A stretch of 64,000 bases of DNA from Candidatus Aenigmatarchaeota archaeon (GTDB lineage: Archaea; Aenigmatarchaeota; Aenigmatarchaeia; QMZP01): assembly GCA_016783545.1 (NCBI GenBank), contig JADHWJ010000006.1:888-64887 (forward strand), written 5' to 3'. The translations under genes were made by a program, and so were the position numbers. How positions within the stretch are numbered: the first letter of the stretch is position 1; each line of letters starts with the position of its first letter. Shown one piece after another: positions 37,187 through 45,639 of the stretch. The notes beneath the pieces are model-generated. The model had not been told where the DNA came from. It did not search any database and saw only the letters and a list, made by a program, of their open reading frames with translations.

Positions 37187-38032
37187 TTAATCAGTTTCCC
37201 ATTTATTTCTAATTGCTATATCAAAACCACCAGGTTTTTCAACAACAGCTACTGCAGAAACAGTTAAATTCTGTTCAAGTTCTTCTGGAGGAGCACCCAT
37301 ACCAACCTCATCTGGTCCGCTATTTGCAAACATGTCTTCATATGCTGCTTGGGCAAGTTCTTCTGCTCCTTTCCCAGGTAAATTTAATTCAAAGAAAGCA
37401 TCTTCAGGTACTACAGGAGTAACCAAATCATCTGTTCCTTCTCTACCAACATAAGTTGATACCATTTGAAATACCCCAGGATTTATTCTTAAATCATCAA
37501 TTTTATGTTCAACAACAAGTATTTCACCTTCCTTTGTAACTATACCCAAAGCAGCATTTCTAGCTAAATCAGCTGCAGATGCTATTCTTGGTGTTTGTGC
37601 TATTTTTTCACCATTTTCAGGATCTGTTCCATCTACCTCTGCACCCCAGCTAGCAAGTGCATATTCCATAGCATCTTTTAAGGAAAATTCATGATCGCCT
37701 ATAATATAAGATGAATATAATAAACTACTATGCCTGCCATTTGAACCTGCAATAAAATCCATATCAGGATCTACCATAAAAGCAGGATATTGTATGTTTG
37801 CCACATTTTTCATTTGTTCTTTTCTTATTTCTTCTGCTTTTTCAGGTGGTACATGTGATGGTATATGCAGCAGCATCTCTACTATAAGTGGAACTTTAGT
37901 ATGCCTTCGTGCCATCCTGTATTGACTAGTAGGACTTCTTCCAGTAACTCTATATACTCCTGCAATATTTTCATTTTCATCTGCTCCAATACCAATCACT
38001 CTTCCAGGGTAGTCCTTAAGCATAATTATCAC
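37187..38032 (-). CDS. purO: archaeal IMP cyclohydrolase (PurO-like)
   Basis: YPGRVIGIGADENENIAGVYRVTGRSPTSQYR and TPRIASAADLARNAALGIVTKEGEILV parallel the Methanocaldococcus PurO pattern as recalled. Adjacent to purH. Confidence 0.65.
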   Translation of the reverse strand: MIIMLKDYPGRVIGIGADENENIAGVYRVTGRSPTSQYRMARRHTKVPLIVEMLLHIPSHVPPEKAEEIRKEQMKNVANIQYPAFMVDPDMDFIAGSNGRHSSLLYSSYIIGDHEFSLKDAMEYALASWGAEVDGTDPENGEKIAQTPRIASAADLARNAALGIVTKEGEILVVEHKIDDLRINPGVFQMVSTYVGREGTDDLVTPVVPEDAFFELNLPGKGAEELAQAAYEDMFANSGPDEVGMGAPPEELEQNLTVSAVAVVEKPGGFDIAIRNKWETD

Positions 38033-38354: not shown

Positions 38355-38389
38355 AACCGGACATATGGGGTCTATGCATATCGGTTTTG
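38355..38389. repeat. repeat L (left copy; inverted relative to R at 40657-40702)
   Basis: The reverse complement caaaaccgatatgcatagaccccatatgtccggtt aligns to caaaaccgatatacttagagccta--tgtccgtttt at about 29 of 35 positions. Confidence 0.6.
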
Positions 38390-38422: not shown

Positions 38423-38761
38423 TTGACTAAAGAAAATAGAATTTTAGAGGGTTTGTTTTTGAGGGAGAAGCCTGCAAAAATACTTTTAGGTCTAAAGCTT
38501 TCTAAATCTGGCACAGTATATACATCAATACTTTCTAAAGAGGCTGACTGCACGTACTCGCACACAATAAAAATACTTAACATGCTCAATAGTATGGGAT
38601 TGGTTAATTTTGAAAAAACAGGAAGAATCAAAAAAGTAACTCTGAGTGATGAAGGCTGGGACATTGCACACAATCTTGAAGCAATTCTAAAGAAGTTTAT
38701 CCAGGTCGAAAATAAAGCCGGAAAAAAAGTTAAAGAAGAAAAGAAAAAGGCAAAGAAATAA
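38423..38761 (+). CDS. small winged-helix DNA-binding protein (TTG start) with Lys-rich tail
   Basis: GTVYTSILSKEADCTYSHTIKILNMLNSMGLVNFEKTGRIKKVTLSDEG is a MarR/ArsR-like wHTH. An AAAAGGTGA SD lies upstream. Confidence 0.6.
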   Translation: MTKENRILEGLFLREKPAKILLGLKLSKSGTVYTSILSKEADCTYSHTIKILNMLNSMGLVNFEKTGRIKKVTLSDEGWDIAHNLEAILKKFIQVENKAGKKVKEEKKKAKK

Positions 38762-38775
38762 AAAGAAGTAGCTCC

Positions 38776-38811
38776 GGAATCTGAGATTCTCGTTTTCGTA
38801 AAAACGGACAT
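38776..38811. repeat. repeat L2 (second left-oriented partial copy)
   Basis: The reverse complement tgtccgttttta-cgaaaacga-gaatctc matches R (tgtccgttttta-tg-gaatctc). It also contains the internal palindrome GGAATCT-g-AGATTC. Confidence 0.55.
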
Positions 38812-38816
38812 TTTCC

Positions 38817-38849
38817 TATAGTTTACAAAATGATGAAATGTAAACTATA
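38817..38849. promoter_or_regulatory. perfect 11-bp inverted repeat TATAGTTTACA-(11 nt)-TGTAAACTATA upstream of recombinase 1
   Basis: Read directly from the sequence. A third copy of the arm lies at 40737-40747. Confidence 0.6.
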
Positions 38850-38888
38850 TAAGTATAAAACACTTAAATTTTAATTAAAGTGGAAATT

Positions 38889-39512
38889 ATGGGAGAATTT
38901 GCTTCTGTTCCGATGAAAGACCCTAGGGGATATCTTAAACCAGCCCAGGCTAACAAGTTGATTAATGCTACAGGTAATATAAGAGATAGATTAATATTCC
39001 AGCTTATGTATAGATGCGGAAGAAGGGTATCTGAGGTTCTCCTGCTTACTGAAGATGATATATTATGGAACGATAGAAAGATAATATTCACAATTCTTAA
39101 AAGGAAAAGACCGGTTAAAGAATTAAAACCAGTTGATTCTGAGACCATAGAACTTCTAAGGCGTTATCTGAACAAAAAGGGTAGGGTAAAGGGATTAAAA
39201 AGGCATAGAAAAGACAGCAGACTTTTTCCTATAACAAGGCAATATGTTTTCAAGCTTGTAAGAAAACTTGGCAAGGAAACAGGGATAGAAATGGTTGGTT
39301 TAAAGAAGATCCATCCACATCATTTCCGTCATAGTTTTGCTGTCCATGCTGTAAGATCAGGAGTAAATTCTGCTGAGGATCTTAGGAAACTTCAGATGTA
39401 TATGGGTCATGCAAACATATCAACCACTGCACATTATCTACAGTTCTCTCCAGATGAACTAAGAAGCCTTGTAGATGGTATGTGGAAGAAAGGAAAAAGA
39501 AATGAAAAATGA
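38889..39512 (+). CDS. tyrosine recombinase, short Xer-like (catalytic domain only); the ORF is open from GTG 38880
   Basis: Contains RDRLIFQLMYRCGRRVSEVLLL, HPHHFRHSFAVHAV and LQMYMGHANISTTAHYLQ (R..H-x-x-R..H/Y pattern). Confidence 0.8.
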   Translation: MGEFASVPMKDPRGYLKPAQANKLINATGNIRDRLIFQLMYRCGRRVSEVLLLTEDDILWNDRKIIFTILKRKRPVKELKPVDSETIELLRRYLNKKGRVKGLKRHRKDSRLFPITRQYVFKLVRKLGKETGIEMVGLKKIHPHHFRHSFAVHAVRSGVNSAEDLRKLQMYMGHANISTTAHYLQFSPDELRSLVDGMWKKGKRNEK

Positions 39513-40569
39513 AGACTATATTGAATTGATGAAGATATACAAAACGTCAGCAAAAACCATAGACAGAGTGTGTGAAATTTTCTCTGGTGGTGATAAGAGA
39601 TATGTTGATTTGGAATATGAGATTATAGTAGCTGGTTTTTTGGATAATGGTGCAATTTCTATTAGGGAAAAACCAATAGAAACAGAGGCTAAATCAAAGG
39701 AGGATATCAAAGGTCCACAAAAGGATTTGAAAGCATTGGCTTTAAAGCTATTAGAAGATCATGATTTCAAGCTAGTTGCTTTTGAAAGGGGTTTTGCAGG
39801 AGGTATAGCTGATATTATAGCAAAAGGTAATGGGAAAAATATAATAATTGAATGTGGTCCATGCAACCTAATAAAGGCTATAGATTATTTATCAGTAGAG
39901 AATACAATTCTTTGGATACTAAAAGCAGATGTTCTTTACATCATTGAAAGGTATAAAGACTGGGGCTCATTCTATCGGTTTCATGAATCGAATCAAGAGG
40001 AAAAAAATAAAAAAATTATGAGCTCTATAAATTTTTTTGATTCTAATTTTAGAAGAAAAATACCTAGAACTTTAACAGAAGAAGAGATAGGTGAGATGTT
40101 GAGGTATTCTGAAGATAATAAAAGAGATAACATGCTAATGAAATGTATGTATTTTCTTGGATTGAAAAATACCGAAGTACAAAATCTGAGGGGAGAAGAT
40201 TTCGATTTTGAAAAAAGTATAGTAAAGATAAGGGGTCGCAGTATACCGATTCCTGAAGACTTCCTTAAAGAAATTTTAAAATGGAAAAAAGAAGGTCCTT
40301 TGTTTTCAGGAAGATCTAATGGTCTTATAAGTGATAGACATATACGCAGGATAGCGAAAAAATATGCTGAACTAGCAGGTGTCCGGAAATACGAGGAAAT
40401 CCACCCTCACACTCTACGTCATTCTTATGCCACTCACTTACAAAACAATGGTACACCTCTTAATGTAATTCAAGCTCTCTTAGGTCACTCTCGCATTGAA
40501 ACCACTACCATATACACTCACCTTGGTATTGAAAATCTGAAACGAGAAGTAGATAAAGTATTTAAATGA
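39502..40569 (+). CDS. tyrosine recombinase with an N-terminal extra domain (possibly nuclease-like); alternative start at 39475
   Basis: The C-terminus carries RDNMLMKCMYFLGLKNTEVQNL, HPHTLRHSYATHL and LLGHSRIETTTIYTH. The N-terminal ~180 aa contain FERGFAGGIADIIAKGNGKNIIIECG. Confidence 0.75.
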   Translation: MKNEDYIELMKIYKTSAKTIDRVCEIFSGGDKRYVDLEYEIIVAGFLDNGAISIREKPIETEAKSKEDIKGPQKDLKALALKLLEDHDFKLVAFERGFAGGIADIIAKGNGKNIIIECGPCNLIKAIDYLSVENTILWILKADVLYIIERYKDWGSFYRFHESNQEEKNKKIMSSINFFDSNFRRKIPRTLTEEEIGEMLRYSEDNKRDNMLMKCMYFLGLKNTEVQNLRGEDFDFEKSIVKIRGRSIPIPEDFLKEILKWKKEGPLFSGRSNGLISDRHIRRIAKKYAELAGVRKYEEIHPHTLRHSYATHLQNNGTPLNVIQALLGHSRIETTTIYTHLGIENLKREVDKVFK

Positions 40570-40656
40570 ATGTATATTTTATTAGATATTCTTTTTATAA
40601 TATATGTTAAAGTATATACTTAATTTATTTTTCTTCGTCGTGAGACTTAATTTTCA

Positions 40657-40702
40657 CAAAACCGATATACTTAGAGCCTATGTCCGTTTTTATGGAATCT
40701 CG
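40657..40702. repeat. repeat R (right copy, inverted relative to L and L2)
   Basis: See L and L2. Sequence: caaaaccgatatacttagagcctatgtccgtttttatggaatctcg. Confidence 0.6.
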
Positions 40703-40736
40703 GGTGTGATAGTTAAATCTACTATATTTTTTATTA

Positions 40737-40747
40737 TATAGTTTACA
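40737..40747. repeat. third copy of TATAGTTTACA
   Basis: Exact 11-mer shared with 38817-38827, and in reverse complement with 38839-38849. Confidence 0.5.
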
Positions 40748-40959
40748 TTAAATATATTATAATAGATAGTATAAGATATATATTATAAATACTATAAGTT
40801 TTTTATTTTTTTCAAAATTTACTAGTGAGAACCCTCACACAAAGTGAGACTTAAGTAGGAGGCTAAGAAGCGAAAACCTCAAAGGGAGAGTAGTTGTGAA
40901 GGGAGTGTGGAGAATGGGTATAGAGGAGCCTGGTGAGAGAAAAACAGTATAGTAAGAGC

Positions 40960-41334
40960 TTAAAAAGAAGGTAAATCAAAGTAAGAGTACCTAACTGCTT
41001 CTATAAATTCAAGAGCAACTCCTACATTCTCAGCAACACTATCATCAGAAGTGAGATCATCAACCCTTTTCACTCTTCCAGTTGTTGTGATTTTTGCCAA
41101 AGGGGGATCATCAGAAACAGCAGCAGGCAAGCCTATACAAAGATTAACTGTATCACCAGGGTTTAGATTTTTTCTATTAGCACGAAAATAAGCACCACCA
41201 GTGCTTAAGTCAGTAGTAAATGCATTATCTAACAATCTATTCTCTTGACAATCATATATCCCTATAGGAAGTGCTAATTCTAGCCTCCTATACCTTCGTC
41301 TTTCAGGTTCTGTATATCCTTTAAATTTGCTCAT
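40960..41334 (-). CDS. PilZ-domain protein
   Basis: ERRRYRRLE (RRxxxR) and DLSTGG (DxSxxG) lie at the expected spacing in a 124-aa protein. Confidence 0.7.
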   Translation of the reverse strand: MSKFKGYTEPERRRYRRLELALPIGIYDCQENRLLDNAFTTDLSTGGAYFRANRKNLNPGDTVNLCIGLPAAVSDDPPLAKITTTGRVKRVDDLTSDDSVAENVGVALEFIEAVRYSYFDLPSF

Positions 41335-41410
41335 AAGAAAATGTTAATAGTAAGGAATAAAAACCAATAAGATGCTTATATTTAAACTAATATATTCAAT
41401 ATCTTATCAA

Positions 41411-42271
41411 ATGAAAAAGATATCCCTTATTATGGTTTTATTTGTTTTATCATTGATGCCTATATTCAGCGCCGCTTCTCAGATAGAGATACCAATAAAG
41501 GCAAATATAACAAGCAACATGACAGTAAACATGCCAAAACCGAGTTTGGAATTGAACATGACGATTGAGAAAGATAAAGATATTATAGGGAATATTACCA
41601 TAACAAAGACTCCTATATCAGTCAATTTATCGCCTGTGCAGGATTTTAGCAGGGTTGTGATAACACCTACAAAAGTTGAAGTACCAGTTAGTGTAGAAAC
41701 AAACGCTTCAGAAGAACAAAATGACATAGAGTCTGCTTTTACAAGAGCTATTAAAATGCCTGATAATGATATAAATCTCAGTGATTTTGTTATTATGTCA
41801 AAAGACGAAGATATGACAGCTTGTAATAACTGCGGTTCAGAATCTGGTGATTCGAGTTCTGGTGGTAAAACTGCACCATCAGTTGTTTCAGTTACATTAG
41901 AAGATTCTGAAGGCGGAGAAGAGCCTATTGATATCACAATAGACAAAGACCAGGTTGTTATCAGTGGTTCCAATGCATCTGCTGCATATAAAGGAAGTGT
42001 AGAAATAAGGGATAAAAAAATATTTTTAGAAGATGCAGAAGTGGGTATGCTTCCTGCTGAAGCAAAAGATATTGCTCAAGATCTTGTTTCTGTGGAAACA
42101 CTTGAACTTGATATTGATGAAGAAAAGCCTATATATAGGGCAAAAGGAACTGAAGAAAAGAGCTTTTTAGGTATAATACCAGTATCAGTTGATGTTGAAG
42201 TGAAAGTTGACGCTCAGACAGGGGAAACTGAAGTATCAGACAAGCCTTGGTGGGATTTCTTAGCTTGGTAG
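41411..42271 (+). CDS. secreted acidic protein, unknown function (the ORF is open from 41372)
   Basis: Signal peptide MKKISLIMVLFVLSLMPIFSAASQ. Contains sequon-rich stretches (NITSNMT, NMTI, NITI). Confidence 0.6.
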   Translation: MKKISLIMVLFVLSLMPIFSAASQIEIPIKANITSNMTVNMPKPSLELNMTIEKDKDIIGNITITKTPISVNLSPVQDFSRVVITPTKVEVPVSVETNASEEQNDIESAFTRAIKMPDNDINLSDFVIMSKDEDMTACNNCGSESGDSSSGGKTAPSVVSVTLEDSEGGEEPIDITIDKDQVVISGSNASAAYKGSVEIRDKKIFLEDAEVGMLPAEAKDIAQDLVSVETLELDIDEEKPIYRAKGTEEKSFLGIIPVSVDVEVKVDAQTGETEVSDKPWWDFLAW

Positions 42272-43798: not shown

Positions 43799-44473
43799 AT
43801 GAAAATCTGGGTGCATAGTTATCATGATAAAAAAGAGATAGAGAAGAAAATAAGAGAACTCGGTGCAAAGGTTTCTTGGTGGTATCCTGATTTTATTATA
43901 TGCTATGGTGGAGATGGAACTGTTTTGGAAGCTGAAAGAAGCTGGCCAGGAGTGCCTAAGATACCAATAAAATTCAGCAAGATCTGTGCTGGTTGTAAAA
44001 ACTATAAGCTAAAGGATTTGGATTATATCATTCCTATGTTAGAGAGGGGCGAATATGATATAGGTGAAAAGGACAAGGTAGAGGCTGTTATTGGGAATAG
44101 AAAACTTGTTGGCCTTAATGAGGTGCAGGTGCACAATGCAGAACCGTTTGTGGCTCTTAGATTTTCTGTATCGGTGGGAAAGAAAAAAATTGATTGTATT
44201 GGTGATGGTGTTGTTGTTTCAACTCCTTATGGTTCTGGTGCTTACTATCATTCAATAACAAGAAAGAGTTTTTCTAAAGGAATATATCTTGCTTTTAACA
44301 ATACAACCGTACAGAAAAGACCAATCAATATTACTGGCAAAGTTAAGGTAAAGATACTTAGGGAAAACGCACTTCTTGTTGCAGACAACCGCAAAGCAAT
44401 GATTAGACTGAAACCAGGGGATGAGATTTTGATTAGAAAGGCAAAGGACAGGGCAAAATTCGTGGAGATTTAA
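43799..44473 (+). CDS. nadK: NAD kinase (short form)
   Basis: Contains GGDGTVLEAER, GLNEVQVHN, DGVVVSTPYGSGAYYHS and ADNRKA. Confidence 0.8.
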   Translation: MKIWVHSYHDKKEIEKKIRELGAKVSWWYPDFIICYGGDGTVLEAERSWPGVPKIPIKFSKICAGCKNYKLKDLDYIIPMLERGEYDIGEKDKVEAVIGNRKLVGLNEVQVHNAEPFVALRFSVSVGKKKIDCIGDGVVVSTPYGSGAYYHSITRKSFSKGIYLAFNNTTVQKRPINITGKVKVKILRENALLVADNRKAMIRLKPGDEILIRKAKDRAKFVEI

Positions 44474-45639
44474 TAGTTTAATACAACGCTTAGTTCTTCT
44501 GGTCCAATGTCAAATTCTTCCAGGAATTCCCTCTTCCTTCCTTTTATTATCATTTTCAGGTATGGTATATTCTCTCTAATGTCTTTTGGAGAACTATGCA
44601 TCTTTTTTACCATTTTTTTATAAAAGCTGTCTCTAAGCGCCCTTTTGAAACGCGTTCTTCCTAATTGGGCAATCTTTTCAGGGTATTGGTAGGGAATAAA
44701 CCCTCTTTGTGGATTAGTTCCTACGGATACTCCTACCATAAGGTCAGACATCAACCCTTTGAATCTCCAATTCTGCTGTTTGTGCACCCTTGATCTGAAT
44801 ATGTCTGCTTTTGAAAGAAGTTCATATGCACATGCGATATCTTCAGCTGTTTTGAACACTTTTGGTATGTTTGTTTCTATCCATTGAAAGACTTCATCAG
44901 GATCCTTGTCTGAATCATATATGGATTTTCTTGCAGCCTTTATGTTCTGCGAAAAAAATATGGTTGGAAGTATATCATAGATGTCTTTTAGCCTTTCTCT
45001 GAAACCAAGGCTTTCAAGGTCTTCTCCTAGGTTTGAGGCTGTCTGAAAATCTGTTATTGCAGAACGCATATCCCCATTTGAAAACCCTGCTATACTATCA
45101 ATAATTTCATCCTTTATTTTCAAATTTTCCTTTTCTATTATCTCCCTTAGTTTTTTTGATATTGATGCTGATCTTATCTTTTGAAATTTCACATGTTTGC
45201 AAGATCTTTTCAGACCAGAAAGCTTTGAGCTATATGGATCATTTGCAATCAAAATAATCGGAAAACTGGACCCCTTTATTATTTTGAGTATGGCCGAACC
45301 AGCTCCCCTGTCAGAACGTCCTGATATGCCATCAACTTCATCTATAAGTATTATCTTTCCTTTATGGAATAATGTTGTCTGTCTTGATGCATCTGAAAGC
45401 TGTAATTCTATCTCTTTCTTTGTTCTTTTGTCAGAGGCATTCAGCTGGACAAGCTGTAGATTGTTTTCCGTTGTATATGTCTCTGCAAAAAGGGTTTTTC
45501 CAATGCCGGGTGGACCTGATATAAGAAGGGCTTTTCCTTTTTTCCATTCGTTTAGAAATTGCAGGGCTTCAGATACGCATTTTTCCTGCCCCACTATTCC
45601 TGCTGTTGTTTCTGGCCTATGCCTATCTACCCAGAGCAT
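44470..45639 (-). CDS. rfcL: replication factor C large subunit
   Basis: Contains LWVDRHRP, ALLISGPPGIGKT (Walker A) and ILIDEVDGI (the DEVD box typical of the large subunit). Confidence 0.8.
   Translation of the reverse strand: MLWVDRHRPETTAGIVGQEKCVSEALQFLNEWKKGKALLISGPPGIGKTLFAETYTTENNLQLVQLNASDKRTKKEIELQLSDASRQTTLFHKGKIILIDEVDGISGRSDRGAGSAILKIIKGSSFPIILIANDPYSSKLSGLKRSCKHVKFQKIRSASISKKLREIIEKENLKIKDEIIDSIAGFSNGDMRSAITDFQTASNLGEDLESLGFRERLKDIYDILPTIFFSQNIKAARKSIYDSDKDPDEVFQWIETNIPKVFKTAEDIACAYELLSKADIFRSRVHKQQNWRFKGLMSDLMVGVSVGTNPQRGFIPYQYPEKIAQLGRTRFKRALRDSFYKKMVKKMHSSPKDIRENIPYLKMIIKGRKREFLEEFDIGPEELSVVLNY

Follow-up and report, generated by a model that had tools for sequence, protein, structure and literature searches.

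A single-domain PilZ protein with intact ligand-binding motifs encoded in an Aenigmatarchaeota genome

Signalling by cyclic di-GMP (c-di-GMP) was regarded as exclusively bacterial until 2026, and an earlier review described the PilZ domain as almost exclusively bacterial (PMC10249747). Does an archaeon nevertheless carry a receptor for this nucleotide? The question is raised by a small gene at positions 40960-41334 of a 64,000-nucleotide stretch of DNA from a Candidatus Aenigmatarchaeota archaeon, hereafter the window, which encodes a PilZ-domain protein. Sidorov et al. 2026 verified genes for GGDEF proteins on archaeal contigs, mainly of DPANN archaea and frequently as short GGDEF-only proteins (PMC13725321). 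Some of these proteins, including DPANN ones, showed diguanylate cyclase activity in bacterial reporter systems, and the identity of the archaeal receptor was named as the immediate open question, in a text from which PilZ is absent (PMC13725321). The window covers positions 888-64887 of contig C7 in an 18-contig, 886-kb assembly, which is 70% complete by marker count and has 0.11% contamination. Here, we analyse whether the protein is a PilZ protein, whether the DNA around it is archaeal, where the gene came from and what it might read.

The protein and the DNA that carries it

The gene is on the minus strand, starts with ATG and has 124 codons; the N-terminus of its product is MSKFKGYTEPERRRYRRLELALP. 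The motif RRRYRR, which fits the RRxxxR consensus, spans residues 12-17 (R12-R13-R14-Y15-R16-R17), and DLSTGG, which fits DxSxxG, spans residues 42-47 (D42, S44 and G47). D42 comes 25 residues after R17 and 30 after R12. These positions are those described in a first-pass annotation of the window, which had recognised a PilZ protein of 124 amino acids with both motifs at canonical spacing. The profile search that it recommended agrees: the Pfam PilZ model (PF07238) covers residues 11-110 with 34.1 bits (E 3.5e-8), above its curated gathering cut-off of 22.5 bits. A six-frame scan of the whole assembly with the PilZ model had this gene as its single match (33.3 bits). The search of NCBIfam with the protein returned one sub-threshold match, to TIGR02266 (a PilZ-type paralogous domain family), and nothing else.

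We aligned the archaeal protein with 49 homologues. The columns of R13 and R17 are invariant, S44 and G47 are kept in at least 90% of the 50 sequences, and the other positions conserved in the subfamily (P23, P70, V88, R90, G105 and F110) are all present in the archaeal protein. The AlphaFold2 model run with the homologue alignment is an all-beta barrel of seven strands, consistent with the six-stranded antiparallel barrel of PilZ domains. Its mean predicted local distance difference test score (pLDDT) is 87.4, with 61 for residues 1-10 and 85 for residues 11-20, and its predicted template modelling score is 0.76. Foldseek returned 18 matches in the PDB at E ≤ 1e-3 with this model. All 18 are PilZ domains, most of them bound to c-di-GMP, and they include Alg44 (4XRN/4RT0), MotI/DgrA (5VX6), PA0012 (8U0I), BcsA (4P00/5EJ1/4HG6), YcgR (5Y6G) and the PilZ domain of CeSA (4I86). 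A search of the PDB by sequence gave nothing at E ≤ 1; hence, it is the predicted fold that links the protein to solved PilZ domains. Judged by its sequence, the gene at 40960-41334 encodes a genuine single-domain PilZ protein in which both ligand-binding motifs are intact.

Among characterised proteins, it resembles the bacterial single-domain adaptors PA0012 (8U0I) and MapZ/PA4608 of Pseudomonas aeruginosa. These are similar in size (about 85-125 amino acids), have one barrel and no other domain, and share the RRxxxR arm and DxSxxG with the archaeal protein; the c-di-GMP-bound PA0012 is among the top fold matches. The differences are the low identity (about 20-26%), the archaeal host in which no c-di-GMP enzymes were detected, and a distinct subfamily for the archaeal protein, in which P23, P70 and R90 are conserved along with a C-terminal L-[RK]-x-[ST]-[LFY] strand. 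The best structural matches are Alg44 (4RT0/4XRN), MotI/DgrA (5VX6), BcsA (4P00) and YcgR (5Y6G), with TM-scores of 0.54-0.64 when normalised by the query. In these structures, c-di-GMP is bound at the same two motifs, but the PilZ domain comes with a fused or paired output domain (glycosyltransferase, membrane-fusion or PilZN), whereas the archaeal PilZ stands alone.

The surrounding DNA is archaeal. To the left of the gene are DUF373, a Fic protein, AICARFT and the archaeal-type IMP cyclohydrolase PurO (ending at 38032), and to the right are an NAD kinase, the large subunit of replication factor C (RFC-L, 44470-45639) and an archaeal class I CCA-adding enzyme. At 41 kb in a contig of 66 kb, the gene thus has archaeal markers at about 3 kb on either side. 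The best named relative of RFC-L is in an Aenigmatarchaeota metagenome-assembled genome (43% identity), and other contigs of the assembly carry an intein-bearing MCM and a Nop5-like protein. The PilZ gene has a G+C content (GC) of 36.8%, against a mean of 36.4% for the genes of the genome; the likelihood of its codon usage is at the 29th percentile of 764 open reading frames (ORFs), and its GC at third codon positions (GC3) is 0.185, below the genome average. The divergently transcribed upstream neighbour is typical of the lineage, since 9 of the family's 46 other genomes also encode its C-terminal domain. Given these archaeal flanks, the host-like GC and codon usage, and the lineage-typical neighbour, the PilZ gene lies on genuinely archaeal DNA and contamination is unlikely. 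The first-pass annotation had worried that the contig might be bacterial or chimeric at this locus; RFC-L, PurO, DUF373 and the CCA-adding enzyme place archaeal DNA on both sides.

Relatives and origin

The 46 other genomes of the family have no PilZ. In the 370 other genomes of the phylum it matched twice, each time on a bacterial contaminant contig of about 2 kb in a bin with 6% contamination. One of these contigs (L014, G057:C14) encodes a fragment of a Kdo transferase, a STAS-PilZ protein and IspH, and the other (L015, G098:C71) a HisKA kinase and a PilZ-fusion protein. Hence, among the 371 genomes of the phylum, PilZ is credible only in the one studied here. A word-indexed search of 5.8 billion clusters returned the protein itself alone, from this one contig. 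An exhaustive HMMER search of 1.84 billion representatives was more productive and gave 84 relatives at E ≤ 1e-3, nearly all of them stand-alone proteins of 110-150 amino acids.

The nearest relative, P0002, has an HMMER E of 3.9e-19 and is 44-46% identical over the full length (44% in BLASTP, E 9e-31). The C-terminal RYSYFDLPSF is identical in both proteins. The contig that encodes P0002 has 30.7 kb and 63% GC; the gene is flanked by those for a GHMP kinase and a Bac_transf priming sugar transferase, after which come a HisKA kinase and a sigma54-type response regulator. This context is unmistakably bacterial, and its GC differs from that of the DNA around the archaeal gene (36%). A profile search raised the subfamily to 178 members, and the few named ones are Candidatus Omnitrophica. 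A second bacterial member lies with Wzy_C, GT2, GAF-SpoIIE and a REC-GGDEF-HD_5 protein, a third with a second PilZ gene and a ROK protein, and a fourth with ROK and MerR proteins. All relatives that have a visible context or a name are bacterial. In the bacterial contigs that we examined, the neighbours include exopolysaccharide and c-di-GMP genes (Bac_transf, Wzy_C, GT2, REC-GGDEF-HD_5 and ROK), whereas the archaeal gene has no such neighbours; yet its product scores as a typical member of the profile of this uncultured-bacterial, stand-alone subfamily.

The association of the bacterial members with polysaccharide and sugar genes is recurrent (L008, 10001-11059; L072; L073; L074). In one case a Bac_transf gene lies 19 bp downstream, and ROK is beside PilZ in two unrelated contigs. 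Such neighbours may reflect the output pathway of the subfamily in bacteria.

The history of the gene can be reconstructed in part. The first-pass annotation had proposed a horizontal acquisition, and this is borne out by the homologues that can be placed, all bacterial, together with the lack of PilZ in the rest of the family. It had also advised a phylogeny to identify the bacterial donor. We inferred a maximum-likelihood tree of 93 sequences, and it gave no specific donor: the archaeal PilZ falls in a polytomy, and even on trimmed columns, support for its grouping with P0002 is below 80%. As the 93-member tree leaves the archaeal sequence unplaced, no donor can be named. Since the relatives are bacterial and the 46 other genomes of the family, which come from other genera, lack PilZ, the simplest history would be a single transfer from bacteria to the archaeon on this terminal lineage. 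The transfer was not recent, because the composition of the gene is by now fully host-like and the nearest relative resides in DNA with 63% GC.

An old acquisition could have decayed. To test this, we left the archaeal PilZ out of the alignment and made a profile from the remaining 49 members. The archaeal PilZ scores 104 bits with this profile; the median of 148 members outside the alignment is 107. Since it scores like an ordinary member, we read the protein as not decayed and kept by purifying selection.

Recombinases, promoters and other neighbours

The first-pass annotation had placed the gene next to a recombinase module and near genes for secreted proteins, and the re-analysis locates the recombinases at 38880-40569 and the protein with a signal peptide at 41372-42271. 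The module (38423..40569, plus strand) consists of a small protein resembling a winged helix-turn-helix and two tyrosine recombinases of 210 and 364 amino acids, which match Phage_integrase (PF00589; 105 and 94.6 bits) and integrase families of PHROG. The two recombinases are dissimilar (26% mutual identity), and their reading frames have 38 nt in common. In the second, 190 amino acids without known domain extend the N-terminus; a paralogue with 35% identity to it is encoded close to the end of contig C11 (about 906-1520).

Is PilZ a cargo of this module? An imperfect inverted repeat of 25 nt (38365-38389 and 40657-40681) encloses the recombinases and leaves PilZ outside. Hence, no physical link between PilZ and the module was shown. 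A search for repeats between 37.8 and 44 kb found AT-rich low-complexity repeats only and no att-type direct repeats enclosing PilZ and the integrase genes. The genome-wide k-mer and BLAST analyses found no copies of the PilZ flanks elsewhere in the genome and no 18-mer with at least five occurrences in the region. Searches for a phage or plasmid origin gave no tblastn matches, and no PHROG match for PilZ or for the neighbours other than the integrases. None of these searches points to PilZ as cargo of a mobile element or cassette: it lies outside the inverted repeats, and neither att sites nor a recurrent cassette end were found. The neighbourhoods of NAD-kinase and RFC-L homologues in 11 relatives have no other gene in common with the window, which left the acquired segment without defined boundaries. 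PilZ sits in a variable region beside recombinases, and nothing shows that it is their cargo.

The recombinases and PilZ are convergent and separated by a non-coding spacer of 390 nt (40570..40959) that has no ORF of at least 50 amino acids and contains the repeats I1, I3 and I10. It includes an AT-rich palindromic stretch at about 40720-40800. Just 3' of the PilZ stop codon, at about 40826-40955, is a purine-rich stretch with higher GC than its AT-rich surroundings, in which we found no ORF of at least 50 amino acids, no Rfam match at gathering level and no second copy in the genome. It may be a 3' untranslated element, a small RNA or a decayed gene fragment.

On the other side, PilZ is divergent from a gene for a secreted protein, whose C-terminal domain weakly resembles PepSY (21.1 bits, a sub-threshold score). 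The listed ORF of this gene starts at 41372, but a typical signal peptide, MKKISLIMVLFVLSLMPIFSAAS (MKKISLIMVLF...), begins at the ATG at 41411. The earlier start is probably too early and 41411 the likelier one, which would give a gene at 41411..42271 on the plus strand. With this start, the divergent promoter region shared with PilZ grows from 37 to 76 bp and corresponds to the AT-rich intergenic region at 41335..41410. On its minus strand, a TTTTTATT stretch precedes the ATG of PilZ by about 21-28 nt; on its plus strand, TTATATTT precedes the ATG at 41411 by about 25 nt. Both are candidate archaeal TATA boxes, and their distances would fit leaderless or short-leader transcripts.

The ligand and its possible origin

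A receptor raises the question of the source of its ligand. The first-pass annotation had noted that no gene for GGDEF, EAL or HD-GYP is visible in the window, which holds, and when the search was extended to the genome there was likewise none in the recovered contigs, i.e. in the recovered 70% of the genome. A family-specific GGDEF hidden Markov model run on the six-frame translation of all contigs found no diguanylate cyclase. We also found no EAL, HD_5 (HD-GYP-type), DAC or MshEN domain and no c-di-GMP-II riboswitch in this genome. The search for the c-di-GMP-I riboswitch gave no signal, but it gave none in the control genomes either. Hence, the recovered 70% contains neither the cyclase nor the phosphodiesterase that a complete c-di-GMP module has. 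One sub-threshold GGDEF match (21 bits) was rejected: it is the domain of a class III adenylate/guanylate cyclase, which matches PF00211 (Guanylate_cyc) with 77 bits. The protein is receptor-like, with about 900 amino acids, FN3/Ig-like repeats, one membrane helix and the cyclase domain at the C-terminus, and its gene (G000:C17:~73526-76234; L002, 1-2061) lies beside the Nop5-like gene.

The relatives differ in this respect. Across the phylum, 60 of 371 genomes have a GGDEF match above the Pfam cut-off. Among the 46 other members of the family, 21 have one, 5 have HD_5 and none has EAL or PilZ. We examined the context of 15 GGDEF loci. In at least nine genera, a short GGDEF-only gene (about 165-356 amino acids as called) adjoins pyrG, the gene for CTP synthase (L056, L058 and L060-L066; for example L061, 9691-12112, and L066, 1364-3763). 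In the four closest relatives it is immediately downstream of pyrG on the same strand, and a gene for an XPF/ERCC4 nuclease lies beyond it in the two loci checked. Most of these proteins have GGDEF, GGEEF or near variants. The pyrG-GGDEF-XPF context is conserved and unmistakably archaeal. The premise of the first-pass annotation, that c-di-GMP signalling is essentially bacterial, does not hold for this lineage as framed: almost half of the family carries GGDEF in an archaeal context, and archaeal GGDEF proteins are active (PMC13725321).

The genome under study has the pyrG gene but not its partner. Its pyrG, on contig C16, is 65-69% identical to those of the closest relatives and ends 5 bp before a convergent ORF of 373 amino acids, which is followed by the intein-bearing MCM. 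At this locus (L067, 4588-7442; G000:C16:25587-28441) we found no GGDEF gene and no cyclase remnant, and the 373-residue ORF in the slot of GGDEF has no match in Pfam, NCBIfam or the PDB. Within our sample, GGDEF and PilZ never occur in the same genome. The archaeal GGDEF cyclases are, like this PilZ, bacterial-type components of c-di-GMP signalling on archaeal contigs, DPANN included, but they are makers of the signal, whereas PilZ is a candidate reader.

The explanation that we favour, with fair but far from full confidence, is that of a canonical single-domain PilZ, a c-di-GMP-binding adaptor acquired long ago from bacteria by a DPANN ancestor and kept intact by selection. By analogy with solved PilZ domains, the protein probably binds c-di-GMP by the canonical mechanism. 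A flexible or disordered N-terminal arm with R12, R13 and R17 would clamp the nucleotide together with D42, S44 and G47 on the surface of the barrel. The closed, c-di-GMP-loaded form would then present a surface, possibly with the conserved C-terminal strand and tail, that docks on a partner protein and regulates it, as bacterial stand-alone PilZ adaptors do. MapZ, which acts on CheR1, illustrates this: single-domain PilZ adaptors act through a partner protein, which they bind when c-di-GMP is in place. Our best guess is that the partner here would be related to the envelope or to glycans, with a role in the control of envelope or attachment, because the bacterial members lie among polysaccharide-assembly genes and the archaeal gene amid genes for secreted and surface proteins.

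The ligand might have three sources: an endogenous cyclase in the part of the genome that was not recovered, c-di-GMP from a host or neighbour, or none, in which case the intact receptor would be orphaned. Of these, we would favour the first, a diguanylate cyclase like those widespread in the family, encoded in unrecovered sequence. Failing this, the receptor may have been orphaned by the loss of the pyrG-linked cyclase. The suggestion of the first-pass annotation that the protein senses a bacterial or host-derived nucleotide is compatible with the lack of turnover enzymes in the genome, but it is reduced to one option among several, because the lineage carries GGDEF and archaeal GGDEF proteins are active.

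Several observations weigh against a canonical adaptor. In archaeal cells, c-di-GMP has so far gone undetected (PMC10249747). The PilZ gene is also a singleton: 15 billion proteins include no orthologue above 46% identity. The genome in hand has no detected GGDEF, EAL, HD-GYP, MshEN or c-di-GMP-II riboswitch, and its pyrG-linked cyclase may be truly lost and not merely unassembled. Finally, PilZ is not the normal receptor of the lineage, since the relatives that bear GGDEF lack it.

These observations leave room for other explanations. If the archaeon makes no c-di-GMP, PilZ might read molecules that arrive from a host or neighbour, perhaps by way of the cell-cell connections of DPANN symbionts. 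This would account for the absence of any cyclase, phosphodiesterase or other c-di-GMP component from the recovered genome, for the GGDEF gene missing from its conserved site at pyrG, and for binding motifs and a fit to the family profile that are nevertheless preserved; the small genome (886 kb) is also typical of host-dependent DPANN archaea. We consider it unlikely. At 70% completeness by marker count, a cyclase may be encoded elsewhere, c-di-GMP does not cross membranes freely, and no precedent is known among prokaryotes. To our knowledge, moreover, the known hosts of DPANN are archaea. It is just as doubtful that the fold was repurposed, either as a mere module for protein interactions or for another nucleotide made by class III cyclases of the cAMP/cGMP type. 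The lack of c-di-GMP enzymes would again be explained, and the genome does encode a class III cyclase in a receptor-like FN3 membrane protein (Guanylate_cyc, 77 bits). Bacteria also have non-binding PilZ proteins, one of them being the type IV pilus PilZ of Xanthomonas (PMC8389850). Yet the known ones have lost RxxxR, DxSxxG or both, whereas here both are intact, as are all residues invariant in the subfamily, and the profile score is that of an ordinary member. We know of no PilZ domain that binds cyclic mononucleotides.

The remaining two explanations deny the gene a function in this cell or a place in it. A functionless passenger, left over from a horizontally acquired or mobile segment by the recombinases and unused by the cell, would fit a singleton in a variable region without conserved synteny and beside two tyrosine recombinases. 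It is nonetheless very unlikely: the ORF is intact and has kept the residues conserved in the family even though its composition was reset to that of the host (GC3 of 0.185, against the 63% GC of the P0002 contig), it lies outside the inverted repeats of the recombinases, with no att-like repeats and no repeated site in common with other loci, and there are no phage or plasmid matches. Less probable still, to the point that we give it hardly any weight, is an artefact in which a bacterial fragment was mis-binned or mis-assembled into an archaeal contig. The two contaminant PilZ matches in other bins of the phylum make it worth considering, but those are on contigs of about 2 kb, whereas this gene is deep inside a 66-kb contig, between archaeal markers, in a bin with 0.11% contamination, with host GC and codon usage and a lineage-typical gene 37-76 bp upstream. 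The canonical, anciently acquired adaptor thus remains the explanation that we prefer.

It is important to highlight what such an adaptor would mean. The archaeal PilZ involves no new mechanism; it is a known protein family in an archaeal genome, a single horizontally acquired gene in one incomplete bin without detected cyclase. It cannot be the general archaeal receptor either, because relatives that bear GGDEF lack PilZ. The conserved pyrG-GGDEF pair, present in about half of the family without EAL or PilZ, may matter more for the field. What the gene offers is a small, easily expressed candidate of 124 amino acids for the receptor side of the archaeal c-di-GMP question. More tentatively, it may be the first identifiable archaeal receptor for c-di-GMP: a bacterial PilZ that would have been recruited to read endogenous or host c-di-GMP and to control the surface or attachment functions of the symbiont.

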